Shown in pieces: positions 1 through 15,005 of a stretch of 42,407 nucleotides of DNA; position 1 is the first letter of the stretch, and each line of letters starts with the position of its first letter. Source of the stretch: an uncultured Clostridia bacterium (GTDB lineage: Bacteria; Bacillota; Clostridia; Christensenellales; UBA1242); the NCBI GenBank assembly GCA_944350095.1, contig CALVOB010000034.1, positions 1 to 42,407 of the forward strand, given 5' to 3'. The translations under genes were made by a program, and so were the position numbers. The notes below the pieces were generated by a model. The model was not told the DNA's origin. It was given only the letters and a program-made list of their open reading frames with translations, and searched no databases.

Positions 1-38
1 ATTCTAGGTGGTTTATTTGTTAAACTGTAAAATTCCAT
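1..38 (-). CDS. N-terminus of next microvirus gene (MEFYSLTNKPPR...), possibly internal scaffolding protein VP3; runs off window
   Basis: ATG at 38 preceded by AAGGAGG RBS (47-53); position after VP5 fits VP3; only 12 codons visible. Confidence 0.35.
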   Translation of the reverse strand, partial: MEFYSLTNKPPR

Positions 39-41
39 GTT

Positions 42-293
42 TTAAGCCTCCTTAATGACATAATCGGTTGCTTTCGCTATAAATCTTCCCTCTGATAGAA
101 TTTCGCCTGTTTGGTCGTCAAAATGCCCTAAAAGCCATAATTCTTTGTCTTCTGGGTTTGTGTTAATAATGTTTGGCTCTTTCTTTTGAGCAAGGTTAGC
201 AAATTCTCTAACTGCTACACCGTCATTTTGTAAATATAATGGGCTCATATACCCGATTTTTGTATCTTTTATGCTATAAATATTTAATTTCAT
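42..293 (-). CDS. Microviridae nonstructural / DNA-binding protein VP5
   Basis: 83 aa; IYSIKDTK...P.....D..A.R.F......NPED..L..LG.FDD.TG pattern characteristic of gokushovirus VP5. Confidence 0.88.
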   Translation of the reverse strand: MKLNIYSIKDTKIGYMSPLYLQNDGVAVREFANLAQKKEPNIINTNPEDKELWLLGHFDDQTGEILSEGRFIAKATDYVIKEA

Positions 294-448
294 TTTTTTG
301 TTTCTCCTATATCATCTGTTATTATTTTTATTATTTTACAATCATTTACCATTTCTTCTAGTATTTCTACAAATTTATCGTAATTTATTTTGTATTTTAT
401 TCCTATATCAATAATTTTTGTTTTTATTTCTGTGTTTGTTAATTTCAT
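290..448 (-). CDS. Small hypothetical phage protein, 52 aa (MKLTNTEIKTKIIDIG...GETKK); not in ORF track
   Basis: Hand-translated; ATGA start/stop overlaps with VP8 upstream and VP5 downstream. Confidence 0.65.
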   Translation of the reverse strand: MKLTNTEIKTKIIDIGIKYKINYDKFVEILEEMVNDCKIIKIITDDIGETKK

Positions 449-558
449 AGTCTTATGCCTCCACGCATACCCGTTGGGTTGATATTTATTGTTTTAGTTT
501 TTGCCGCAGTTCTGCGAAAGATTTTTTTATCGAGTTTTCTTCTTGTTCTTTTTCTCAT
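445..558 (-). CDS. Microviridae small basic DNA-binding/packaging protein VP8 (J-like), 37 aa; not in ORF track
   Basis: MRKRTRRKLDKKIFRRTAAKTKTININPTGMRGGIRL; basic N-terminus, F.RTA and C-terminal RGGIRL signature; GGGGGAG RBS upstream. Confidence 0.9.
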   Translation of the reverse strand: MRKRTRRKLDKKIFRRTAAKTKTININPTGMRGGIRL

Positions 559-560
559 AA

Positions 561-611
561 CTATCTCCCCCTTTTTCTGCGCCTTATTATTCTAGTTCTG
601 CGTCTTCTCAT
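561..611 (-). CDS. 16-aa Arg-rich protamine-like peptide MRRRRTRIIRRRKRGR; not in ORF track
   Basis: AGGAGG RBS 8 nt before ATG at 611; TAG at 561-563, 2 nt before the VP8 start. Confidence 0.55.
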   Translation of the reverse strand: MRRRRTRIIRRRKRGR

Positions 612-906
612 TTGCAGTTCCTCCTAAATAATTATTTACAGCTTCTTTTGCTGTTTTTTCTTTGAATTTAATGTTGAGTTCTTCACATTTACTTTTTATC
701 ATAGCGAGTATGAAATTTGCTTTTTGCATTTGTGTGCCCCAGTTACCGTTCGCAAGATTTGCATAATTTGGTATACTTTTGAGTATTTCTTCAAATGCTG
801 TTGTTGCATTTTTCTTGCTTGTTTTTATCCAAGCTATAAAATAAAAGATTACTATTAAAGCATTAATGCATACTGTTGCTATTGATATTATGTTTTCTAT
901 TGTCAT
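592..906 (-). CDS. Single-TM phage membrane protein, holin-like (LL-H-type architecture)
   Basis: Likely start MTIEN at 906 (AAAAGGAG RBS) rather than 948; one N-terminal hydrophobic helix followed by a soluble helical tail. Confidence 0.5.
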   Translation of the reverse strand: MTIENIISIATVCINALIVIFYFIAWIKTSKKNATTAFEEILKSIPNYANLANGNWGTQMQKANFILAMIKSKCEELNIKFKEKTAKEAVNNYLGGTANEKTQN

Positions 907-1098
907 AATTCTCCTTTTTATTTGTAATACAAATGTTTTACATTTCATTAATGACAGCTTTTGCGAATAGTTTAGGTATTTAAAAAGTGATTTTGCTAAA
1001 TTAACTTATATTTTTTAAATTTAAAAAATTTTATAAAGTTATCAGCTTTTTACTTAAATTTTATTTTAAAAAATCAATAAAACCCTTATAAAATCTAT

Positions 1099-1139
1099 GT
1101 ACTATGCAAATTTTTAGTACTATGCATAAGTACTATGCA
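1099..1139 (+). repeat. Three direct copies of GTACTATGCA (1099, 1117, 1130); probable protein-binding sites
   Basis: Seen directly; array ends 5 bp upstream of a sigma-A -35 box. Confidence 0.75.
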
Positions 1140-1144
1140 AATGC

Positions 1145-1173
1145 TTGACTTAGTATTTTATTTTTGATATTAT
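1145..1173 (+). promoter_or_regulatory. Sigma-A promoter of PadR-TM gene
   Basis: TTGACT-17 bp-TATTAT with TG extended -10. Confidence 0.65.
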
Positions 1174-1265
1174 CTTTATAGAGTTAAAATTCTTTGTTTT
1201 AAACAATTTTTAATAATATTTACATATAACTCTTTGTTTAAATTTAATTTTAGGAAAAGGTTTTT

Positions 1266-3086
1266 ATGGAAATTAAAGAAATTCCAAGAGGTCAACTATC
1301 TACAATAATATTATCAACATTATTAGATGGTGATAAATATGGCTATGAAATTATAAAAGATATTGAAATAAAATCTGGCGGTAAAATAAAAATTAAACAG
1401 CCAAGCCTTTATAGTAGTTTAACTAGAATGGAAAATCAAAAATTAATTTCATCGTATTGGCGAGATAGTGATATTGGTGGAAAAAGACATTATTATAGAT
1501 TAACAGATTTTGGCAGAAAACAAACAGAACAATGGCAAAATGATTTTATGAATTCAAATTCTGTTGTTTCTGGTTTATTTAAAGATGGAGAAAATGGCGA
1601 AAATTTTAAACTTAAAGAAGAAGTTATAAAAGAAGAAATTAAACAAGATGAGCCTAAATTTTTACAACAAGAAAATATTTTTTCTAAGTTGGAAAAATCT
1701 GAAAAAAAACAAGATGAAAGCACTTCTCGAACTTCCCTAGTGCCTGATCAATTAGATATTTTTGAGCTTGCAAATAAAGCCATTGAAGAAGAAAAGAAAA
1801 AGAATGAAAAAATAGAAATTCAAGAAGAGTTTGTTCCTCCACCAGAAAAACATTATAATGTATATCAAGAACTCAACCAACTTAGAAAGCAAAATGAGAT
1901 TTCTAGTTTTGCTGAAAATATAAAAGAAGATTATACTGATGACGATTTAGAAGAAATTGAAGAAACGCCATTTAAAAAATCTTTTGCAGAAAGTTTAAAA
2001 ACAGATATTAACAATATTTCTAATATAAACAAAGATTTAGAAATTCAAAAAGAAAATTCATATAATGTTTATTATGAAAACAAAAATGGACCCTTAAATT
2101 CAAACGATATAGTTGAAAATGAATTCAATGAGAACAAGGAAGATAATTTTAATCATAACGAAAATATATTAGATAATATTGAAAATCAAACATACATTAA
2201 TGAAAACCAGTTAAACATTGCTTATAATAATTCATTAGATAATGAACAAGATTTAACAAATGATATAGAATTAAATAAAAACGAAATACAAAATCTAAAT
2301 GAAAATGTTATAGAAGAAAAACAAGAAAAAAAAGACTATACATATTCAAAACAGGAAAAAGATGAAGGTATATTCATAACAGAAACTCCAAACCCTGAAA
2401 GTTTGCCAAAAGTTAAAAAAATCGAACCTGCAAGATTTACTATTGTTGGTGAAAGTCCCCTATTTAAATATTCTACAGTAGAAAATAAATATAATGAATT
2501 AGTAGAAGATTTATATAAAAAGGGATTTAACGAAAAATCTTCTGAGGGATATCTTTCGTATGATGCATTAAATGAGCATTACAAAAAGAATGGTTTAAAA
2601 TTTTATGCATATACTGCAAAAGAAATCTATTCGCAAAATGAAAAATCAATAAAAAAGGTAAATAATGACTTTATTCCTATTAATAAAATAAATTTTTATA
2701 AATCTATAATATATCTTGCTTTAATATTATTTGAAACTTGGCTTTCTTACACAATCTTAAGCGTTACAGGAGCTCAACCGCAACAATTATTTTTGTATAT
2801 TATAGTTACAATTTTAGCCTTTTGTCCAGCTGTTTATACAGGTATAATGTTTTATAAAAACCCTGAAAAACAACTGCCAAAAGATGTTCAAGAACTAAAA
2901 CAGTTTTTTATAAATTTAGGGATAGCAGTTTTAGGAATTTTGTTAGTATTTTCATTTAATGTTCTTTTTGGATTTAATGGTCAAAACTTTTCTGATTATT
3001 CAACTACCATTGTTTTACCTTCTGTATTACTTTTAAACGTTCCTATATCCTACTACATCTCAAAAGAATTGATTAAGAGATTTTAA
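1266..3086 (+). CDS. PadR-family wHTH protein with long acidic low-complexity linker and about 4 C-terminal TM helices
   Basis: N-terminal IILSTL..GDKYGYEI...QPSLYSSLTRME...GGKRHYYRLT PadR pattern; E/N/K-rich middle; hydrophobic C-terminal ~130 aa. Confidence 0.85.
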   Translation: MEIKEIPRGQLSTIILSTLLDGDKYGYEIIKDIEIKSGGKIKIKQPSLYSSLTRMENQKLISSYWRDSDIGGKRHYYRLTDFGRKQTEQWQNDFMNSNSVVSGLFKDGENGENFKLKEEVIKEEIKQDEPKFLQQENIFSKLEKSEKKQDESTSRTSLVPDQLDIFELANKAIEEEKKKNEKIEIQEEFVPPPEKHYNVYQELNQLRKQNEISSFAENIKEDYTDDDLEEIEETPFKKSFAESLKTDINNISNINKDLEIQKENSYNVYYENKNGPLNSNDIVENEFNENKEDNFNHNENILDNIENQTYINENQLNIAYNNSLDNEQDLTNDIELNKNEIQNLNENVIEEKQEKKDYTYSKQEKDEGIFITETPNPESLPKVKKIEPARFTIVGESPLFKYSTVENKYNELVEDLYKKGFNEKSSEGYLSYDALNEHYKKNGLKFYAYTAKEIYSQNEKSIKKVNNDFIPINKINFYKSIIYLALILFETWLSYTILSVTGAQPQQLFLYIIVTILAFCPAVYTGIMFYKNPEKQLPKDVQELKQFFINLGIAVLGILLVFSFNVLFGFNGQNFSDYSTTIVLPSVLLLNVPISYYISKELIKRF

Positions 3087-3180: not shown

Positions 3181-4767
3181 TTATTTTGCAATAGCTGTAA
3201 AACGAGATTCTCTAATAACATTAACTTTAATTTGACCTGGATAATCCATTTCTTTTTCAATCTTTTTAGCAATGTCGTTAGCAAGGAACACAGCAGTTTC
3301 ATCAGATATTTCAGATGGCTTAACCATTATTCTAACTTCCCTACCAGCCTGAATTGCATAAGACTTTTCAACACCTTTGAATGAATTAGATATTTCTTCA
3401 AGTTTTTCTAATCTTTTAACATAATTCTCTAAAGACTCTCTTCTTGCTCCAGGTCTTGAACTTGAAATTGCATCTGCAACTTGAACTAATACAGCTTCAA
3501 CACTATTGAATTCTACATTAAAATGATGAGCTTCAATACAATGTATAACAGCAGGGCTTTCTTTATATTTTTTTGCTAAATCCACACCAATGGTAACATG
3601 TGTTCCTTCAACTTCATGGTCAAGCGCCTTTCCTATATCATGTAAAAGGCCTCCACGCTTAGCAACTTTTACATCAGCACCGATTTCAGAAGCTAATAAT
3701 CCAGCAATAAAAGCAGTTTCTAATGAGTGCTTTAAGCAGTTTTGCCCATAACTTGTTCTATATTTAAGCCTACCTAAAATTTTAACTAGTTCAGGATGCA
3801 TACCATAAATTTCCGCTTCTTCTACGGCTTGTTCACCTGCTTCTTTTATAGTATTTTCAACATCTCTAGTAACCTTATCTACAATTTCCTCTATTCTTGT
3901 TGGATGTATTCTTCCATCTAAAATTAACTTTTCAAGGGATAATCTAGCTATTTCCCTTCTTACAGGGTCAAAACTTGATAATGTTATAGCTTCTGGCGTA
4001 TCATCAACAATTAAATCTACACCTGTGGCATTTTCAATAGCTCTAATATTTCTTCCTTCACGACCAATAATTCTTCCTTTCATATCGTCGTTAGGTATTG
4101 TTACTACTGATACAGTTGTTTCCGAAGTAACATCTGTAGCACATTTCTGTATAGCCAGAGCTACAATATCTTTTGCTATTTTTAGCCCATCTTCGCGCGC
4201 TGTATTTTCAATTTCTTTTACAGTTTTTGCAGCACTTATTTTAGCTTCTTCAGTTAATTCATTTATGATTAAATTTTTAGCTTCTTCTTTTTTTAATCCA
4301 GAAACTTTCTCTAATTCTTTAACCATATTTGCTTTTACTTCTTTTTGTTCGTCATAAAGCTTTTCTAAGTTTGCTTGTTTATCTAACAAATCTTGCTTAG
4401 CTTGCTCTAAGGCTTCAGATTTTTTATCAAGTGCGAGTTCTTTTTTATCTATAAATTCTTCACGTTGTAAAATTCTATCTTCAGATTTTTGTATTTCAAG
4501 CTTTTTTTCTTTTTGCTCTTTTTCAAAATCAAGCCTTAAATTTTGAACTTCATTTTTTGCTTCAAGCAATGCTTCCTTTTTTACTGTTTTGGCCTCAGCA
4601 TAAGCATCCTCTATTATTTTTAATGCCTGTGCTTTGTTTTTGTTTGTTTTTTTAGCAATAAAAAATGTTTCAATCCAAATTCCAGCTACTAAACCTATAA
4701 TTGCAGTAGCTAAACTCACCAAAACAACAACATAAGGAGCAACGCTTAATAATAAACTGTTGCTCAT
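3181..4767 (-). CDS. rny: Ribonuclease Y
   Basis: N-terminal TM, coiled coil, KH ([12 protein letters not shown]), HD domain (LLHDIGK). Confidence 0.98.
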
Positions 4768-5014: not shown

Positions 5015-6172
5015 TTATTCAATAATTTCAATATTATTTATAGCTTCATCAATTAAATAATCAAGGTTTATTTTACCCTCTTCAACTTGAGCTTTTTTAA
5101 TTGTAGGTTTAATTACAGGATTTTTAGGAAGAAAAACAGTACAACAATCTTCATAAGGCAAAATTGATGTTTCATAAGTTCCGATTTCATTAGAAATTTT
5201 CATTATTTCACTTTTATCCATACCAATTAGAGGTCTAAAAATAGGCAAATTTTCAACAACACTATTAGTTACAGTTATGCTTTCAAGTGTTTGGCTTGCA
5301 ACTTGACCTAAGCTTTCACCTGTAATTATTGTTCCACAATTATATTTTTTCGCAACTCGTTCTGCTATCCTTAACATAATTCTTCTCATGATTGTAATCA
5401 TATATTCTTCATAACAATTTATATGGATAGCTTCCTGAATTTTTGTAAACGGAACAACAAACAACTTTATTTTACTAGTATAATCTTCTAATATATCTTT
5501 TAATTTTAATACTTTTTCTTTTGCTTGCAAACTTGTATAAGGAAAACTATGAAAATGTATTGCATTTAAACTTAATCCTCTTTTTGCCATCATATAACCT
5601 GCCACAGGGCTATCTATTCCACCAGATAGCATTAACAGTCCCTTTCCTGCTGTTCCAACAGGCATACCGCCATGAGCATAAATTATTTTTGTTAAAATAT
5701 ATGTTTTACCATTTTCCCTTATTTCTATTATTATATTTGTATCTGGATTATGCAAATCAACTTTTAAATTCGAATTAGCATTTAAAAATATTTCTCCAAT
5801 AAAAGCAGAAAACTCATCAGACTTTACAGGAAATTTTTTATCTGCTCTTTTTGTACTTATCCTAAATGAACCTGTAAGTTCTTTTGCAATTTCCATACAT
5901 TTAGTTATTATTTCTTCTTTATCTGTTGAAAGCTCAAAAGCTGGACTAACAGAAACTAAGCCAAAAATTTTTTTTAATTTTTCAATTATTAAATTATAAT
6001 CGTTTTCATTATAATTAGATATCACATATCTTCCTGATATTTTTTTTAATTCAAAAGAAAAATCTTTTAAAGATTGTTTAATATTTTTTAACAATGCATT
6101 TTCAAAAAATGCCCTATTGTTTCCTTTTAAATGGAGTTCTCCATATCTTAATATAATAACATTTTCCTTCAT
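5015..6172 (-). CDS. thiI: tRNA 4-thiouridine(8) synthase ThiI (no rhodanese domain)
   Basis: YGELHLKGNNR, THUMP domain, PP-loop LSGGIDSPVA, GESLGQVASQT, EDCC. Confidence 0.97.
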   Translation of the reverse strand: MKENVIILRYGELHLKGNNRAFFENALLKNIKQSLKDFSFELKKISGRYVISNYNENDYNLIIEKLKKIFGLVSVSPAFELSTDKEEIITKCMEIAKELTGSFRISTKRADKKFPVKSDEFSAFIGEIFLNANSNLKVDLHNPDTNIIIEIRENGKTYILTKIIYAHGGMPVGTAGKGLLMLSGGIDSPVAGYMMAKRGLSLNAIHFHSFPYTSLQAKEKVLKLKDILEDYTSKIKLFVVPFTKIQEAIHINCYEEYMITIMRRIMLRIAERVAKKYNCGTIITGESLGQVASQTLESITVTNSVVENLPIFRPLIGMDKSEIMKISNEIGTYETSILPYEDCCTVFLPKNPVIKPTIKKAQVEEGKINLDYLIDEAINNIEIIE

Positions 6173-6183
6173 AAGTTTTCCTT

Positions 6184-7284
6184 TTATAAGTTTGCAAGCC
6201 TATTTGCAAATTCGTTTAATTTTTCTACAACAATTTTTGCTTCATCAATTGTGTTATATCTTGAAAAGCTAAGCCTTATACTTCCTACTACACTTTCTTT
6301 ATCTAAGCCCATAACAGTCAAGATTCTATTGCCTACTTTTGAACCTGAACATGCACTCCCCCTGCTTATAAGAATATCTTCACTTTCTAGCATGTGTACT
6401 AAAGTTTCACCATTTATTCCTTTATAACTTAATGATAATATATATGGAGATGTATTTAATCCATTAACTGTAAATTTTTTATTTAAGTTATCTATTATAA
6501 ATTTTTTAATTTCGCTTGCAGAAGTATTGTAACTTATATCTTCAATAGCACCCTTGAATCCCATAATTCCAGCCACATTTTCTGTGCCAGAGCGAAGATT
6601 ATACTCTTGCCCACCACCAAAAATTATTGGATTTAATTTGTTTTTATTCTTTGCATATAAAGCCCCAACTCCTTTTGGTCCATGAATTTTATGAGCGCTA
6701 ATAGTATAAAAATCTATATCAGAATTTAAAGTAAACTTTATTTTTCCAAAAGCTTGAACACCATCAGAGTGGAATATGGCATTTGGACATATTTTATTTT
6801 TAATCTCAATTAATTTATCAAGGTTGTTTATTGCTCCTGTTTCATTGTTTACATGCATTATAGATATGAAATTGGTATCTGACGAAAGCTTATTTTTAAA
6901 ATCTTCAACATCTACTTCTCCATCTTTAGTTAACTTTATAAATTCTACATTATAACCTTTATTTTTTAAATCTAATGCTGTATTATAAACAGATGGGTGT
7001 TCTCCCTCAGAAAATATAAGTTTTTTAAAATTCTTTTTTATAGAACCGTTTATTGCAAGATTGTTTGCTTCCGTTGCTGAGCCTGTAAATATAACATTAT
7101 CCTTAAACTCTACCCCAAGAGTTTTTGTAATTATTTTTTTACAGTTATTTATTTGATTTTTATTTTCAATTCCCTGCTTATAAATAGAAGATGCATTAAA
7201 AAACTTATCTGTTAGATATTCGTTTAAATATCTAACAGATTTTTCGCAAGGTTTAGTTGTGCTGGCATTATCAAAATATATCAT
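6184..7284 (-). CDS. iscS: Cysteine desulfurase (IscS/NifZ-like, partner of ThiI)
   Basis: YFDNASTT, HVNNETG, SAHKIHGPKG PLP lysine, GSACS catalytic Cys. Confidence 0.92.
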   Translation of the reverse strand: MIYFDNASTTKPCEKSVRYLNEYLTDKFFNASSIYKQGIENKNQINNCKKIITKTLGVEFKDNVIFTGSATEANNLAINGSIKKNFKKLIFSEGEHPSVYNTALDLKNKGYNVEFIKLTKDGEVDVEDFKNKLSSDTNFISIMHVNNETGAINNLDKLIEIKNKICPNAIFHSDGVQAFGKIKFTLNSDIDFYTISAHKIHGPKGVGALYAKNKNKLNPIIFGGGQEYNLRSGTENVAGIMGFKGAIEDISYNTSASEIKKFIIDNLNKKFTVNGLNTSPYILSLSYKGINGETLVHMLESEDILISRGSACSGSKVGNRILTVMGLDKESVVGSIRLSFSRYNTIDEAKIVVEKLNEFANRLANL

Positions 7285-9689
7285 CTTAATTTTGCCCCAA
7301 ATTTAAATTCGCAATCTTTTAAAATTTTATGCATAGAAGAATTTACTTCTTCTTCTGTAAGTGTTTTTTCTTGAGAAGATAGTACTATGCGTAGAGCTAT
7401 ACTTTTTTTGTTTTCTCCTAAATTTTTATTCCTATAAATATCAAATATTTTTGCAGAATAATAAAGATTGCCAGCAGATTTTTTAACAGAAGATAAAAGT
7501 TTTTCTGCAGTAATTTCTTCATCTACAATTAAGGCTAAATCTCTTTCTACATAAGGAAATTTTGATATAGGCTTAACTGAAACTTTTTTCTCGTTAAATT
7601 TTATAAGCTTATCTATATTTATTTCCGCATACAAAGTTTTTTCCGGAAGTTCAAAATTATTGCAAACTTTTGGATGTACTACACCAAACGAGCAAATAAT
7701 TTCTTGAGTTGATTTTTCTATGATATCAGCACTCATTCCTGGGTGCATATATGGAAGAGAAGAATATTTTAAATCATAGTTTAAATCAAAACTAGATAAA
7801 AGCTTTTCTATTGTACCCTTTAATGAGAAAAAGTCTACATTTTCATCAATTGCTCCAATACTCAACATATTTATTTCTGATGGTTGTTCTGTTAATGGTA
7901 ATTCTTTTGGTAAATATATTCTTCCCGCTTCAAAAAATCTTAAATCTTTATTTCCATGCTTTATATTGTAAGATAATGAATTTAACATAGAAAATGCCAT
8001 ATTAGTTCTAACACAAGAAAGTTCATCGCTAATTGGATTTCCTAATTTTATCATATTATAATTTTTATGCTCTGGAGTTAATAGAACTAAATCACATGCA
8101 TTTGGTGGACAAAAAGTATAATTTAAAGTTTCATAGTACCCATCATCACATAAAATATTTTTAAGCTTATTTTCCATATGAATAAGTGGGTTAAACTTTC
8201 CAATTGTATAAGAAGAATTTTTCAACGCTGGAACATCTAGATTGTCGTAAACATCATAGCCATAAAGCCTTATTATTTCTTCGGCAATATCTGCATCATT
8301 TTCAATATCAGTTCTAAAAATTGGAATAATACATTTTAATTTATCACCATTAATTTCTGGCTTTAATCCAAGGCATGTAAGAATATTTAAAACTTCTTTA
8401 TTTTCAACTTCAATTCCTAGAATTTTATAAATTCTTTTTAAAGAAAAGGTCATCTCTTTTTCTTTTGGTTCGCAATTTTTTACATCAATCATGCCACTTA
8501 CAATAGTGCCTGCTTTAAGTTTGTAAACTAAACTTAATGCAGTTTGCATGCCTTGCAAAGGAGAACCTATATCTACACCTTTTTCAAATCTAGCTGTACT
8601 ATCTGTTCTAACACCTATTGCTCTACTTGTTGAACGAATATTTGACCTTTCAAAACAAGCTGCTTCTAAAACACTTATTTTTGTATTATCTGTAACAGAA
8701 GAATTAACTCCACCTATTATTCCAGCTATTACATTTGGCTTATTGGCATCTGCAACAACATTAAAAGATGGTTTTAATTCATAAGTATTTCCATTTAATA
8801 CGCTTATCTTTTCGCCATTTATTGCATTTCTTATAATTATTTTGTTGCCTTCAATGTATTTTTCATCAAAAGCATGCATAGGTTGACCTTGTTCCACTAA
8901 AACATAGTTAGTAATATCCACAATGTTGTTTACACATTTAATTCCTACAGCATTTATACGCTTTTTTATCCACATAGGACTTTCTTTTATTGTTATATCT
9001 TTAACAACTGTTGCTATATAACGAGGGCAAAGCTCATAATTTTTTATTTCAACAGATACATAATTGTTTACATCATCTGTTTTGTCAACTTCATAATATG
9101 GGTCTTGTGCAATTAATGGCGTTTTTAAAATTGCACTAATTTCCCTTGCTATTCCTATTACACTCATGCAATCAGGACGGTTAGGTGTTATATTAATATC
9201 AAAAATAACATCATCTAGCCCAAGTGCAGTTTCTATTTTTTCGCCAAGGTCATGTTTTTCATTAAGAACTAAAATACCATAAATATTTGCACCTTTGTAA
9301 TAATCTTCTGTAATACCTAATTCTTCGCCTGAGCAAAACATACCCTCAGATACTTCTCCGCGAAGGTTAGATTTTTTTATTTTAATTCCATTTACAAGAT
9401 CGGCACCATCAAGAGCTACAGGAACATAGTCTCCTTCTCGAATATTTTTTGCCGCAGTTATTATTTGAAGTTTTCTATCACCTAAATCCACCTGACAAAC
9501 ATCAAGTTTTTCTGCATTAGGATGTTTTTGTATGCTTAAAATTTTACAAACATAAACATCATGTAAGTGTTTATTTTGATATTCTATTTCTTCAACTTCT
9601 AAACCTGCGTTAGTAAGCTTATTAGCCAATTCTTCTGGTGAAATATCTATTTTAACAAATTCTTTTAACCAATTTAATGTAACTTTCAT
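7281..9689 (-). CDS. pheT: Phenylalanine--tRNA ligase beta subunit
   Basis: HPNAEKL, TPNRPDC, DIAEEIIRLYGYD, C-terminal FDX-ACB (RDLALIV...GAKLR). Confidence 0.98.
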   Translation of the reverse strand: MKVTLNWLKEFVKIDISPEELANKLTNAGLEVEEIEYQNKHLHDVYVCKILSIQKHPNAEKLDVCQVDLGDRKLQIITAAKNIREGDYVPVALDGADLVNGIKIKKSNLRGEVSEGMFCSGEELGITEDYYKGANIYGILVLNEKHDLGEKIETALGLDDVIFDINITPNRPDCMSVIGIAREISAILKTPLIAQDPYYEVDKTDDVNNYVSVEIKNYELCPRYIATVVKDITIKESPMWIKKRINAVGIKCVNNIVDITNYVLVEQGQPMHAFDEKYIEGNKIIIRNAINGEKISVLNGNTYELKPSFNVVADANKPNVIAGIIGGVNSSVTDNTKISVLEAACFERSNIRSTSRAIGVRTDSTARFEKGVDIGSPLQGMQTALSLVYKLKAGTIVSGMIDVKNCEPKEKEMTFSLKRIYKILGIEVENKEVLNILTCLGLKPEINGDKLKCIIPIFRTDIENDADIAEEIIRLYGYDVYDNLDVPALKNSSYTIGKFNPLIHMENKLKNILCDDGYYETLNYTFCPPNACDLVLLTPEHKNYNMIKLGNPISDELSCVRTNMAFSMLNSLSYNIKHGNKDLRFFEAGRIYLPKELPLTEQPSEINMLSIGAIDENVDFFSLKGTIEKLLSSFDLNYDLKYSSLPYMHPGMSADIIEKSTQEIICSFGVVHPKVCNNFELPEKTLYAEINIDKLIKFNEKKVSVKPISKFPYVERDLALIVDEEITAEKLLSSVKKSAGNLYYSAKIFDIYRNKNLGENKKSIALRIVLSSQEKTLTEEEVNSSMHKILKDCEFKFGAKLR

Positions 9690-9702
9690 TTTTGTAACTC
9701 CA

Positions 9703-10722
9703 TTATTTTATCTGTGATAAGAATTTTAAATCGTTTTCAAACATCATTCTTATTGATGGTACTTTGTATTCTGTAATTGCAAATCTATCAACTCCAAATC
9801 CAAAAGCAAGCCCTGAATATTTCTTAGAATCAATACCGCAATTTTCTAATACTTTAGGATTAACCATACCTGCTCCAAGCAATTCCATAAAACCAGAACC
9901 TTTACATCTTGGGCAACCTTTTCCGCCACACATCGGACAAGTAGCATCTACTTCTACACTTGGCTCCGTAAAAGGAAAGAATGATGGCCTAAATCTTATT
10001 TGAGTATTTTCACCAAATAGCATTTTTAAAAGTTTGGTAAGTAAAGCCTTTAAGTCTATCATACTAATATTTTCATCAACCACTAAACCTTCTAGCTGAT
10101 GGAAAACTGGTGAATGAGTAGCATCACTATCAGCTCTATAAGTTCTACCTGGACTAACAATTTTAATAGGAGGCTTCATTGTTTCCATAGCCCTAATTTG
10201 CATAGCTGAAGTTTGCGATCTCATAATTAAATTTTGAGTTATATAAAAAGAATCTTGCATATCTCTTGCTGGATGGTCTTTTGGTATATTTAACGCTTCA
10301 AAGTTATAATAATCAGTTTCAATTTCTGGACCATCTACAACTGTAAATCCCATTTCTACGCAAGCTTCCATTAATTTATTCATGACTTTGTTTAATGGAT
10401 GAATTTGCCCACGCTCTACATTTTTTGCTGGCTCTGTTATATCTATTTTTTGTTCAGCAAGTTTTCTTTCAAGTTCTAAAGAATTTAATTTTTCTTCTGT
10501 TTCTTGAATAACATTTTCTAACCTTTCACGCGTAGCATTTATCACTGCACCAAATTTAGGTCTTTCTTCGGCAGGAATGTCTTTCATTCCTCTAAGCAAT
10601 GACGTAAACTGCCCTTGTTTACCAAGATATTTAACTTTAAAATCTGATAGGGATTTTAAATCTTCAATTTTTACAAGTTCTTTTAATGCCTCTGTTTCAA
10701 GTTGTTTAACTTTTTCTTCCAT
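9703..10722 (-). CDS. pheS: Phenylalanine--tRNA ligase alpha subunit
   Basis: HPARDMQDSFY, THSPVFHQLEG, FRPSFFPFTEPS; start moved to MEEK at 10722 (AGGAGA RBS). Confidence 0.98.
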   Translation of the reverse strand: MEEKVKQLETEALKELVKIEDLKSLSDFKVKYLGKQGQFTSLLRGMKDIPAEERPKFGAVINATRERLENVIQETEEKLNSLELERKLAEQKIDITEPAKNVERGQIHPLNKVMNKLMEACVEMGFTVVDGPEIETDYYNFEALNIPKDHPARDMQDSFYITQNLIMRSQTSAMQIRAMETMKPPIKIVSPGRTYRADSDATHSPVFHQLEGLVVDENISMIDLKALLTKLLKMLFGENTQIRFRPSFFPFTEPSVEVDATCPMCGGKGCPRCKGSGFMELLGAGMVNPKVLENCGIDSKKYSGLAFGFGVDRFAITEYKVPSIRMMFENDLKFLSQIK

Positions 10723-12181: not shown

Positions 12182-13324
12182 TTAAGCAATGTCAAGAGAA
12201 TTTATGTTCCAATTTCCTATTATTTCCTTTATATTATCAAAAAAGTCAACAGATTTAACCTCTTCCATAGCATAAACATCTTCTGAGAACAATCTTTTTC
12301 CATCAAGATATATGCTAAAATTTCCCACCACGCTATCTTTTTCTATTGGAGCTTCAATATTTTCAGGAATGTTATATTCATAAATTAGTTTATTTTGCTC
12401 TTCTTCTGTTAATGGATAAGAAAAACCTTTTCTTGAATAAACTTTAAGACTTTCTTCTTTTCCATCAATTACACCAACTCTTCTGATATAATTATAAGGC
12501 GGAACTATTTCTACTAGCTTGTACTCATTAAATGCTTGTTCTAGTAAAACGGCACATTCTTCGAACATAGGGCCACAATTAAAAATAACACAGATAAACT
12601 CCGTTCCTTCTCTTTCTGCAGAACCAACGAAGCATCTACCAGCATCATCTGTAAATCCTGTTTTTACACCTGTAGCTCCTTGAAAGTTATTTAATAATTT
12701 GTTTTTATTTTTAAGATATCTTTTAGGAACTTTATCATTTCCTGATATTTGACATTCTTTTGTGCTTACAATTTCAGCAAAAGTTTCATTTGATAACGCC
12801 TTTGCTGTAATTAAAGCTAAATCGTGTGCAGTTGTAAAATGACCTTCTTCGTCTAAACCATGCGGATTAGCAAATGAAGAGTTTGTAGCCCCAGCGTTTT
12901 TTGCAGTTTCAAGCATTAGTTTACAAAAGTCTTCAATGCTATCTGAAATATAGTAAGCAAGTGCAGTTGCAGCATCATTTCCTGAAACAAGCATCATTCC
13001 ATATAAAAGTTCTTTTACAGAGAGTTTTTCTCCTTTAACTAAATAAATTGATGTCCCAGGAATTCCTACTGCTCTATCATCTATATCTACTATTTCATCT
13101 AAGTCATCACAATTTTCTAGTACTGTTAAAGCTGTTACAATTTTGGTCGTGCTTGCCATAGGAAGTGGCTCAGAAGAATTTTTTGAATAAATTTCTCGTC
13201 CTGTGGTTTTTTCAATTAACATCATAGCTTTGGCAGAAGTTTGAAAATCTGCCACAGCCCATATTTTCGGAACTAATACATTAATACAAAGCAAAATTGC
13301 TATGAATATAATTATTTTTTTCAT
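12182..13324 (-). CDS. dacB: D-alanyl-D-alanine carboxypeptidase (DacB-like, peptidase S11)
   Basis: Signal peptide, ASTTK, SGNDAA, KTGFT motifs; ytfJ-dacB-rluB synteny. Confidence 0.88.
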   Translation of the reverse strand: MKKIIIFIAILLCINVLVPKIWAVADFQTSAKAMMLIEKTTGREIYSKNSSEPLPMASTTKIVTALTVLENCDDLDEIVDIDDRAVGIPGTSIYLVKGEKLSVKELLYGMMLVSGNDAATALAYYISDSIEDFCKLMLETAKNAGATNSSFANPHGLDEEGHFTTAHDLALITAKALSNETFAEIVSTKECQISGNDKVPKRYLKNKNKLLNNFQGATGVKTGFTDDAGRCFVGSAEREGTEFICVIFNCGPMFEECAVLLEQAFNEYKLVEIVPPYNYIRRVGVIDGKEESLKVYSRKGFSYPLTEEEQNKLIYEYNIPENIEAPIEKDSVVGNFSIYLDGKRLFSEDVYAMEEVKSVDFFDNIKEIIGNWNINSLDIA

Positions 13325-13707
13325 TGTTTTTTCTCTCCAATTTTATCTACAATAGTATTTAGAATATTTAAAAAAGTCTGATATGCAGTTTTATTTTCAA
13401 TATCTATAAATTTATAACTTCCATGACTTTCAATTAAAAAACCTACAGGTGAAACGCTCATACCACCACCGCTACCCCCAGCCATTGGGTAATGTTTTGC
13501 AACTCTTCTTGAACTTTTGTCTGAATATTCTCCCCCACCTACAACAAATCCAACACTAACTTTAGATATAGGAATAATTATTGTTCCATCTGGAGAAATC
13601 ACAGGATCTCCAATTATAGTGTTAGTTTCCATTAATGTTTTAATATTGGATATACTTTCCTCAATTAAATTATTGATATTAGACGAATTTTCATCAAATA
13701 TTTTCAT
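13321..13707 (-). CDS. ytfJ: Spore germination/sporulation protein GerW (YtfJ)
   Basis: NTIIGDPV..DGTIIIPISKVSVGF..GGGE, GGSGGG.SVSPVGFL. Confidence 0.93.
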   Translation of the reverse strand: MKIFDENSSNINNLIEESISNIKTLMETNTIIGDPVISPDGTIIIPISKVSVGFVVGGGEYSDKSSRRVAKHYPMAGGSGGGMSVSPVGFLIESHGSYKFIDIENKTAYQTFLNILNTIVDKIGEKKQ

Positions 13708-14324: not shown

Positions 14325-15005
14325 TCAATTTTTGGGAACTAAATTTAACATTTCATCAAGTTGACTAGAATTTAAGTATGTATCAGGGATTTTTCCTGTA
14401 ATTACACTTTCTGTAAGTAATATTTCTGTGGTAGTATTTACAATTTTTGTATCTGTTGGCAAAATTATGCTTACATCTGTTTCAACATACAAATATATAC
14501 CATGAATAGTTTGGTTTATTCCCGCAGATGTAAATTCAGAATGAAATCTTGTATAAATAGTTCCTATTGGAGATAGTTTTAGGTTTACTTTTGGCCCTCT
14601 ATCTGTAAGCAAAGTAATACCTGTAAATGTACCAATACCAATTTCTATCCCCTGTTCACCTAAATTGTTTAAACTTTCTTGTGCAGACGTTAAAATTTCT
14701 TTTGATAATAAATTAATTTTATAAGCATTTGCCGTTATCATTTGAATATCGTTATTATCATCTTTTATTATTTCAATAAGTTCATTATAAATTTGTTCAT
14801 CTTGTATAACACTATAAACAGCATTTTCAACTGAACTTTGAGTTAACGAGCGTACTTTGGCCTCCGTTGCGTCAATTATGATAGGATTTACAACATAATG
14901 CAAATACAAAAATATTGAAATTATTATAAGCAGAATAATAGTTAAAACTATATAAAGTTTCTTTTTTGCTGATAGTTTCTTTTTTCTATACTCATATTTT
15001 ACCAC
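14325..15005 (-). CDS. yunB: Sporulation protein YunB
   Basis: N-terminal TM, GPK..L.L.PIG, SEFTSAGINQTIH, ESVITGKIPDTY. Confidence 0.93.
   Translation of the reverse strand: MVKYEYRKKKLSAKKKLYIVLTIILLIIISIFLYLHYVVNPIIIDATEAKVRSLTQSSVENAVYSVIQDEQIYNELIEIIKDDNNDIQMITANAYKINLLSKEILTSAQESLNNLGEQGIEIGIGTFTGITLLTDRGPKVNLKLSPIGTIYTRFHSEFTSAGINQTIHGIYLYVETDVSIILPTDTKIVNTTTEILLTESVITGKIPDTYLNSSQLDEMLNLVPKN

Follow-up and report, generated by a model that had tools for sequence, protein, structure and literature searches.

The first 952 positions of the window, which is the complete 42,407-nt contig CALVOB010000034.1 (C34) from the genome of an uncultured Clostridia bacterium (GCA_944350095.1, G000 below), constitute the right end of a gokushovirus-type microvirus comprising five genes on the minus strand. 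From position 1266 onwards the window contains host genes, encoding a PadR-domain protein, RNase Y, ThiI, PheST and RelA, together with yunB and gerW/ytfJ. The remainder of the phage and its other junction with the host are located on a second contig of the same genome, C61 (7,524 nt). G000 is a metagenome bin of 986 kb in 64 contigs, with about 29% G+C and an estimated completeness of 94.5%. The original prediction, made from the window, placed the phage genes VP5 and VP8 (with its RGGIRL ending) directly beside a host PadR gene, rny and sporulation genes, and all of them are present in that arrangement.

The window begins inside the gene for the internal scaffold protein VP3, whose first 12 codons occupy positions 1-38 (ATG at 36-38) and which extends past the contig start. 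This fragment reads MEFYSLTNKPPR..., and its DNA is identical to C61:7135-7172; the complete VP3 on C61 has 170 aa and matches Chlamy_scaf (PF09675, E-value 4e-34). The 83-aa DNA-binding/packaging protein VP5 (ORF5, for open reading frame 5) is encoded at 42-293 and was recognised by PF20577 (Phage_ORF5; E 1.7e-19, 69.6 bits against a cut-off of 27) and phrog_1670 (E 8e-23); a second copy at C61:7176-7427 is matched by PF20577 too (E 1.8e-19). Between VP5 and VP8 lies ORF52 (290-448), a phage-borne frame of 52 aa for which no family match below E 0.06 was obtained in Pfam or PHROGs. An NCBIfam row for ORF52 (E 0.0024; 16.3 bits against a cut-off of 1023) was taken as noise. The VP8/J-like basic DNA-binding protein of 37 aa (445-558) ends in MRGGIRL and matches phrog_10695 (E 8.7e-8). 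The first gene after the phage attachment site (attP), still within the att boundaries, is ORF118 (592-948), encoding a 118-aa membrane protein. Its matches to PHROGs holins are weak (E 0.015 and 0.08), those in Pfam (E 0.027-0.25) fall far under the cut-offs, and NCBIfam gave nothing usable; a role as a lysis or exclusion protein is plausible. Neither ORF118 nor the VP3 start figured in the original prediction.

On C61, host genes including proS (1004-2710) are followed by a terminator (2704-2726), a palindrome (2849-2884) and then the minus-strand phage genes for a ribbon-helix-helix (RHH) protein, VP4, VP2, VP1, VP3 and VP5. The genes VP1, VP2 and VP4 and the second junction, which had been expected to the left of the window, are found here, along with VP3 and the junction with proS. 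The major capsid protein VP1 (C61:4904-6670; Phage_F, PF02305, E about 1.6e-170; phrog_514, E 8e-221) is the sole microvirus capsid-family match in the search of G000. VP4, the rolling-circle replication initiator, matches REP_ORF2-G2P (PF23343, E 2.5e-20) and phrog_942 (E 5e-112), and VP2, a DNA pilot protein of 137 aa, matches pilot-protein PHROGs with E-values down to 4e-22. The RHH gene (C61:2883-3035) codes for a 50-aa Arc/CopG-like protein (RHH_1, E 3e-4; Arc-like PHROGs, about 1e-6) that may plausibly regulate the resident state. This gene terminates inside the outer edge of the palindrome.

When the two contigs are joined, the minus-strand order is ORF118, VP8, ORF52, VP5, VP3, VP1, VP2, VP4 and RHH, and all nine frames are open and of normal length. 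The unit between the flanking repeats measures 5,223 nt, a figure which presumes that C61 and C34 join at a shared 87 nt; it agrees with the size range of gokushovirus-type genomes (about 4.3-6.3 kb) and contains no other structural modules. The Chlamydia-phage-type VP3 and ORF5/VP5, which separate gokushoviruses from phiX-like phages, are both present. Among 3,616 matching phage records in GenBank, the top 25 are gokushoviruses of 5.0-5.6 kb from animal or human faeces, with VP1 identities of at most 58% and none labelled as an Escherichia phage. By its gene content the element is a gokushovirus-type microvirus with a complete gene set. As the original prediction had noted for the window, no integrase is in view: no recombinase or integrase was found between the att sites on C34 and C61 among all ORFs of at least 35 aa, which were listed and scanned against families.

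Junctions and attachment sites

The C61 junction has the order proS, terminator, palindrome and RHH through to VP5, and the C34 junction runs from VP5 to ORF118, half a palindrome and the PadR gene. The latter site, attR (window 940-971), has the form of a hybrid dif, composed of a phage arm ACATTTCATTAAT (940-952), the spacer GACAGC (953-958) and a host-type arm TTTTGCGAATAGT (959-971). On direct reading the phage arm is degenerate, with 7 of its 13 positions agreeing with the host arm. The attL site on the proS side retains the intact palindrome. An exact direct repeat of 23 nt (window 953-975, C61:2864-2886) is shared by attR and attL, within a wider match of 27 of 29 positions (C34:950-978 against C61:2861-2889). 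The repeat was defined by BLAST and direct reading, the MAFFT alignment of the junction regions being uninformative. To judge from these sequences, the crossover must lie within the 23-nt repeat. The 13-nt arm word has three exact matches in the 986-kb genome, all of them at the two att sites.

The att sites could be defined, as the original prediction had suggested, by comparison with empty sites. Orthologues of the PadR gene are present in all six genomes of the same genus that were searched, four of which have flanks usable for comparison. In each of these four, PadR is the immediate neighbour of proS and rny comes next, the arrangement of an empty site. The PadR orthologues of the four are 57-76% identical by tblastn (60-81% in another search), and the DNA between proS and PadR has diverged, yet an identical 36-nt palindrome, AAACTATTCGCAAAA GACAGC TTTTGCGAATAGTTT, is retained in every one. 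Its core, ACTATTCGCAAAA-GACAGC-TTTTGCGAATAGT, comprises two inverted arms of 13 nt around a 6-nt spacer, and the spacer and right arm of attR are identical to those of the four empty sites. On this comparison the phage is inserted in the host palindrome, of which the phage site has copied the spacer and one arm. Two other roles for the palindrome were considered and ruled out: proS has a separate terminator (C61:2704-2726), and the GTACTATGCAAA boxes upstream of PadR are a different element from the palindrome.

The prophage is not assembled on one contig. The last 390 nt of C61 overlap the beginning of the window; C61:7135-7467 and C34:1-335 are 91% identical overall, with the first 87 nt identical. 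The two VP5 copies differ at 19 nt and in one residue, a ratio which points to selection on the protein, and upstream of VP5 the variants diverge further, ORF52 stretch included. Divergence after a shared stretch suggests that assembly stopped where two phage variants part. The two VP5 variants could stem from tandem copies at dif, from a mixture of two host strains, or from a prophage together with a free phage.

A VP1 scan over one genome per species identified two further integrated relatives, both in Clostridia metagenome-assembled genomes (MAGs). The first, L049, lies on a 42.8-kb contig (VP1 57% identical) and the second, L053, on a 38.3-kb contig (VP1 53% identical). Both are located beside a PadR orthologue and are bounded by repeats of 13-6-13 layout, spaced 5,119 nt apart in L049 and 5,369 nt apart in L053. 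The exact arm words of G000 are absent from L049 and L053, the sites of which are homologous in layout and different in sequence. VP8-like ORFs with 64-67% identity occupy the same position beside VP5 in both relatives, and L049 also carries a 27%-identical counterpart of ORF118 in the same position (E 8e-5) and a 43%-identical RHH gene at the equivalent place. The L049 prophage (5509-10660) is reversed relative to PadR in comparison with G000, although the host spacers, GACAAC and GACAGC, read the same way, implying that the attP spacer is inverted relative to the phage genes.

Microvirus capsid genes are otherwise uncommon among these bacteria. No Phage_F gene was detected in 40 other relatives and one further, weak match was detected among 400 other genomes of the order, giving 1 of 41 relatives and 2 of 401 order genomes with G000 counted in both; no sister prophage was found within the relatives examined. 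Three microvirus-only contigs of 3.8-5.1 kb (L050, L051 and L052) occur in MAGs labelled Methanobacteriota or Alphaproteobacteria, and probably represent binning errors rather than host links.

Sites of the same design are also found in unbinned phages. The 5,563-nt IMG/VR microvirus contig L114 contains a contiguous attP, CATTCGTAAAT-GACAGC-TTTTGCGAATAGTTTAG, located between the VP4 and VP8 sides of the phage; this contiguous spacer and arm of G000 type is the arrangement expected of the free circle. An arm model built from 19 distinct host sites was scored on the 80 closest IMG/VR relatives by VP1, with 240 shuffles as a control. Four of the 80 scored 28.8-36.8 bits and a fifth was marginal at 9.1 bits, against a shuffle maximum of 6.8. 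Three of the four strong matches combine one perfect arm with one degenerate arm, as in G000. The highest score (36.8 bits) belongs to L123, an 8,661-nt contig too long for a microvirus, with a near-perfect host-type palindrome near position 5063; L123 is probably another prophage with host flank. In the IMG/VR phages L121, L125 and L127 the spacer is CCTGTG, which is the spacer of the site in G009, a relative of G000.

The host palindrome and its candidate recombinase

The distribution of the palindrome was determined by scanning 41 related genomes with a strict pattern, TTCGYWAAA and TTTWRCGAA separated by 4-8 free bases. It was found in 27 genomes, always with a spacing of six bases and in 25 of the 27 as a single copy, while a reversed control pattern had matches in three genomes. 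By coordinates, the site lies within 1.5 kb of a PadR orthologue in 12 genomes. The arms vary jointly and stay complementary (CACTTCG/CGAAGTG, CTCTTCG/CGAAGAG, GTAGTTCG/CGAACTAC), as would be expected if one protein binds both arms. Such joint changes extend across genera, examples being the sites of L055, L070 and L079, and they may be used to follow the co-evolution of recombinase and site.

The site also appears to mark the replication terminus. In all four long contigs of relatives that were tested, the maximum of the cumulative GC skew is within 5 kb of the site: at 44.0 kb with the site at 43.8 kb (G005:C2), at 273.0 and 273.05 kb (G016:C5), at 32 and 34.7 kb (G002:C6), and at 262.5 and 267.5 kb (G014:C8), respectively. 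For G000, one analysis gave positive skew in the host portion of C61 and negative skew throughout C34, and another placed the turn from positive to negative at about 2800-3000 of C34, after which the skew stays negative through the contig end. Gene direction turns here as well, on the terminus side, with RNase Y encoded on the minus strand at 3181-4767 (TIGR03319, E 1.3e-218).

Four tyrosine-recombinase matches were found in G000. Only one of them, a protein of 343 aa (C62:667-1698), scores well on Xer models, with 195 bits for XerS (195.1, NF003462, its best match), 173 for XerC and 158 for XerD. The two other full-length tyrosine recombinases do not exceed 79 bits with any of the Xer models; the fourth match, on C52, is partial, has an in-frame stop and was left unscored. 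In all four relatives measured, an orthologue of the C62 gene lies near the site, at distances of 1.9, 2.9, 9.8 and 11.6 kb, and the att sites of L049 and L053 are 2.6 and 0.7 kb away from one, respectively; linkage of an Xer-like gene to the site holds in 6 of 6 loci examined. The recombinase gene is near the site yet not always adjacent to it, the distance being about 10-12 kb in this genus. The protein is named XerS-like, not XerS, as it fails the XerS score and the site fails the published layout of difSL.

In single-recombinase dif systems, as described in the cited texts, a unique, near-palindromic site at the terminus is linked to a single Xer-like gene (PMC5357621, PMC3025954). Since the palindrome is unique, has co-varying arms, is positioned at the terminus and is linked to an Xer-like gene, it is inferred to be the functional dif of the host, and the XerS-like protein to be the enzyme that would catalyse both integration and excision of the phage.

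Integration model, alternatives and host

Taken together, these data suggest, with a probability of about 0.82, that a complete, integrase-less gokushovirus-type prophage is resident in the host dif between proS and the PadR gene, with a host Xer recombinase likely acting on it. The absence of an integrase would be explained by the use of the host dif and, probably, of the host Xer enzyme. In the proposed mechanism, the circular double-stranded replicative form of the phage would present an attP mimicking the host dif, in which the spacer and one arm are copied and the second arm is degenerate. The single XerS-like tyrosine recombinase of the host, which would normally resolve chromosome dimers at dif, could then recombine attP with dif by strand exchange at the 6-nt spacer. 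Integration would leave an intact dif at attL, on the proS side, and a hybrid with the degenerate arm at attR, on the PadR side. As both sites persist, the same enzyme could excise the phage by the reverse reaction, and the RHH protein encoded beside attP is a candidate regulator of the resident state. The original prediction proposed a temperate microvirus of a monoderm spore-former. An integrated phage, most likely driven by a host Xer recombinase, and a host with spore-former genes are in agreement with the temperate and spore-former parts of this proposal.

Several observations weigh against this interpretation. The prophage is not contained in one contig, and the presence of at least two phage variants makes the pairing of flanks and variants ambiguous. 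The C62 protein is under the NCBIfam cut-off for XerS (195 against 267 bits), and 14 of the 41 relatives gave no match to the strict pattern. The site is unlike difSL and the classical dif of Firmicutes, and the designation dif is based on its position, uniqueness and conservation. Finally, in four Logan runs, aligned over window positions 1-2500, no contig bridges the junction with at least 31 letters on each side. Two Logan records, X1 (937-1220) and X2 (939-1690), show no mismatches and contain just 11-13 letters of the phage arm ahead of the core and the host sequence; as their study is possibly the source of the assembly, they were not counted as support. Records in X6 and X7 begin at 953, in the spacer, which is compatible with a graph branch at dif and is no proof of one.

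The alternative that survives best accepts the integration and takes the palindrome for something other than dif, such as a protein operator or the site of another recombinase, with a different or unknown enzyme integrating the phage. The lack of resemblance between the site and any published dif consulted, the sub-threshold score of the candidate enzyme, the two further full-length tyrosine recombinases of G000 and the distance of about 10-12 kb between the xer gene and the site in this genus could all be accommodated in this way. However, those two recombinases stay at or below 79 bits on Xer models, and the palindrome is distinct from both the PadR boxes and the proS terminator. A site occurring once per genome, with a layout of 11-13/6/11-13, co-varying arms, a turn of GC skew in 4 of 4 contigs and Xer linkage in 6 of 6 loci, is not what this explanation would predict, and it is considered unlikely.

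It is also conceivable that the element is a decaying or domesticated remnant which no longer excises or forms particles. The rarity of microvirus capsid genes in the group (1 of 41 relatives, 2 of 401 order genomes) and the strongly degenerate phage arm of attR (7 of 13) are in line with such a state. On the other hand, the nine genes all have open frames of normal length, the VP5 variants differ by 19 nt and a single residue, pointing to selection, the 5,223-nt unit matches free relatives of 5.0-5.6 kb, and the attP sites of free relatives share the design with one good arm. A remnant is accordingly most improbable.

That a free microvirus was merely misjoined to host contigs by assembly or binning, as might be feared for a 64-contig metagenome bin in which the phage is divided over two contigs where two variants diverge and no Logan contig bridges the junction, and given that microvirus-only contigs such as L050-L052 were binned into unrelated MAGs, is scarcely credible, because two contigs carry complementary junctions at both sides of a locus that is contiguous in four congeners, the joins fall precisely in a 23-nt repeat belonging to a conserved host palindrome, and related phages occupy the homologous place deep in 38-43-kb contigs of two other assemblies. 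The original prediction had named a chimeric join as the outcome that would overturn it; the empty sites of the congeners, the flanking repeats and the same design in two other Clostridia MAGs make such a join very unlikely.

G000 encodes Spo0A (252 bits against a curated cut-off of 200) and SpoIVA (700 bits against 460), and these scores place it in the endospore lineage; by its gene content the host is a spore-former-type Bacillota. The window adds two sporulation genes on the minus strand, those for YunB (14325-15005) and GerW/YtfJ (13321-13707). A genome of about 1 Mb is unusually small for a set of core sporulation genes comprising Spo0A, SpoIVA, YunB and GerW/YtfJ. Sequencing runs that contain the window stretch are mostly chicken-gut metagenomes, and in the four Logan runs aligned to the window, three studies have the host flank with few differences and phage pieces 90-99% alike.

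The right flank of the insertion consists of host intergenic DNA (976-1265), which can be aligned with the intergenic DNA of the empty sites in the congeners, and the gene for the PadR-domain membrane protein (1266-3086, plus strand; 606 aa; PF03551, E 1e-18). The intergenic DNA contains a promoter-like site of the PadR gene, TTGACT-17-TATTAT (1145-1173). Three GTACTATGCAWA boxes (1099-1110, 1117-1128 and 1130-1141) abut the -35 element of this site, and two to three copies of the box precede PadR in all four congeners read. The boxes are likely to form an autoregulatory operator of PadR.

Gokushoviruses are among the commonest phages of the animal and human gut, and most of them have no known host. 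The prophage described here gives one gokushovirus lineage a direct host link, to an uncultured member of the Bacillota that is of spore-former type and has a genome of about 1 Mb, and marks a probable chromosome-dimer-resolution site of Clostridia. More broadly, it is slightly favoured that small-genome gut Clostridia, comprising a whole family and parts of an order, resolve chromosome dimers by an undescribed single-recombinase system of an XerS-like enzyme and a perfect palindromic 13-6-13 dif, the arms of which would co-evolve with the enzyme, and that a gokushovirus clade has evolved genus-specific copies of the site. If this is true, a comparison of the attP spacer and arm with the dif sites of bacteria could reveal the host genus of a free gut gokushovirus, a practical rule of host prediction for which the CCTGTG spacer shared by L121, L125, L127 and G009 provides one example.

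Comparison with known systems

The closest precedent is provided by the Enterogokushovirus prophages of Escherichia, represented by EC6098, in which integration with XerC and XerD was shown genetically (PMC7062461). They resemble the prophage of G000 in being integrase-less, about 4.3-5.2 kb long, inserted at the chromosomal dif and rare. In both cases a conserved bacterial site is present on one side and a variable phage site on the other, and both sites are kept, making excision possible (PMC7062461). The differences, as far as the cited text goes, concern first the host, which here belongs to an endospore lineage of Bacillota rather than to Enterobacteria, and secondly the site, a perfect 13-6-13 palindrome with a sequence unrelated to E. 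coli dif. Furthermore, one XerS-like candidate takes the place of XerC and XerD, and the dependence on Xer is genetic there and inferred here. The VP1 lineage is also different, with faecal gokushoviruses as best GenBank matches at no more than 58% identity, and an RHH gene is located beside attP.

The 2020 paper states that no gokushovirus prophages were found outside enterobacteria (PMC7062461). A survey of 2022 then described the first microviral prophages in Firmicutes isolates, in Erysipelatoclostridium and Mammaliicoccus sciuri, and a few in Gram-positive bins (PMC9239249). The original prediction, which cited the use of dif and host Xer enzymes from enterobacteria, is extended by these results, since dif is used here too and an Xer enzyme is probable, and it is refined by the survey, in which microvirus prophages of Firmicutes were already published. 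The survey cases share with the present one the integration of a microvirus in a Gram-positive genome. The host here is, by contrast, an uncultured lineage with a genome of about 1 Mb, and the cited text gives no site or mechanism for the survey cases (PMC9239249). A literature search, with the supplementary host tables of PMC9239249 outside its range, returned no paper on a microvirus at a Clostridial dif, on a site of the present type or on a single-recombinase dif in Clostridia.

Among the dif systems themselves, XerS/difSL of streptococci and lactococci and XerH/difH of Helicobacter and Campylobacter employ a single recombinase of about 350 aa, encoded close to a near-symmetrical site near the terminus (PMC5357621). 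The G000 system is similar to XerS/difSL in having a single candidate recombinase and a near-symmetrical terminus site, and its arm TATTCGCAAAA resembles the left arm of difSL, TTTCCGAAAA. Whereas the 31 bp of difSL comprise arms of unequal type on either side of an 11-bp centre (PMC5357621), the present site consists of perfect 13-mers around a 6-nt spacer. The enzyme scores 195 bits against the XerS cut-off of 267, and its gene is located 0.7-12 kb from the site and is not always adjacent to it.

The organisation of the prophage also recalls the integrative mobile elements exploiting Xer (IMEX), such as the CTX, VGJ and TLC phages of Vibrio and the gonococcal island. Like these, it encodes no recombinase of its own, is flanked by dif and a dif-like site, and has one arm and the centre conserved while the other arm is degenerate. 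However, those IMEX are filamentous phages or islands of Proteobacteria and use XerCD or XerL. In the Legionellales, as reported in the cited text, a mobile element likewise revealed a new dif/Xer system (PMC9765430).

The gokushoviruses considered here would thus integrate as their enterobacterial counterparts do, by copying dif, but at another kind of dif, on which a single recombinase probably acts. The trick is known from E. coli and its principle is unchanged; new are the group of hosts and the type of dif site involved.

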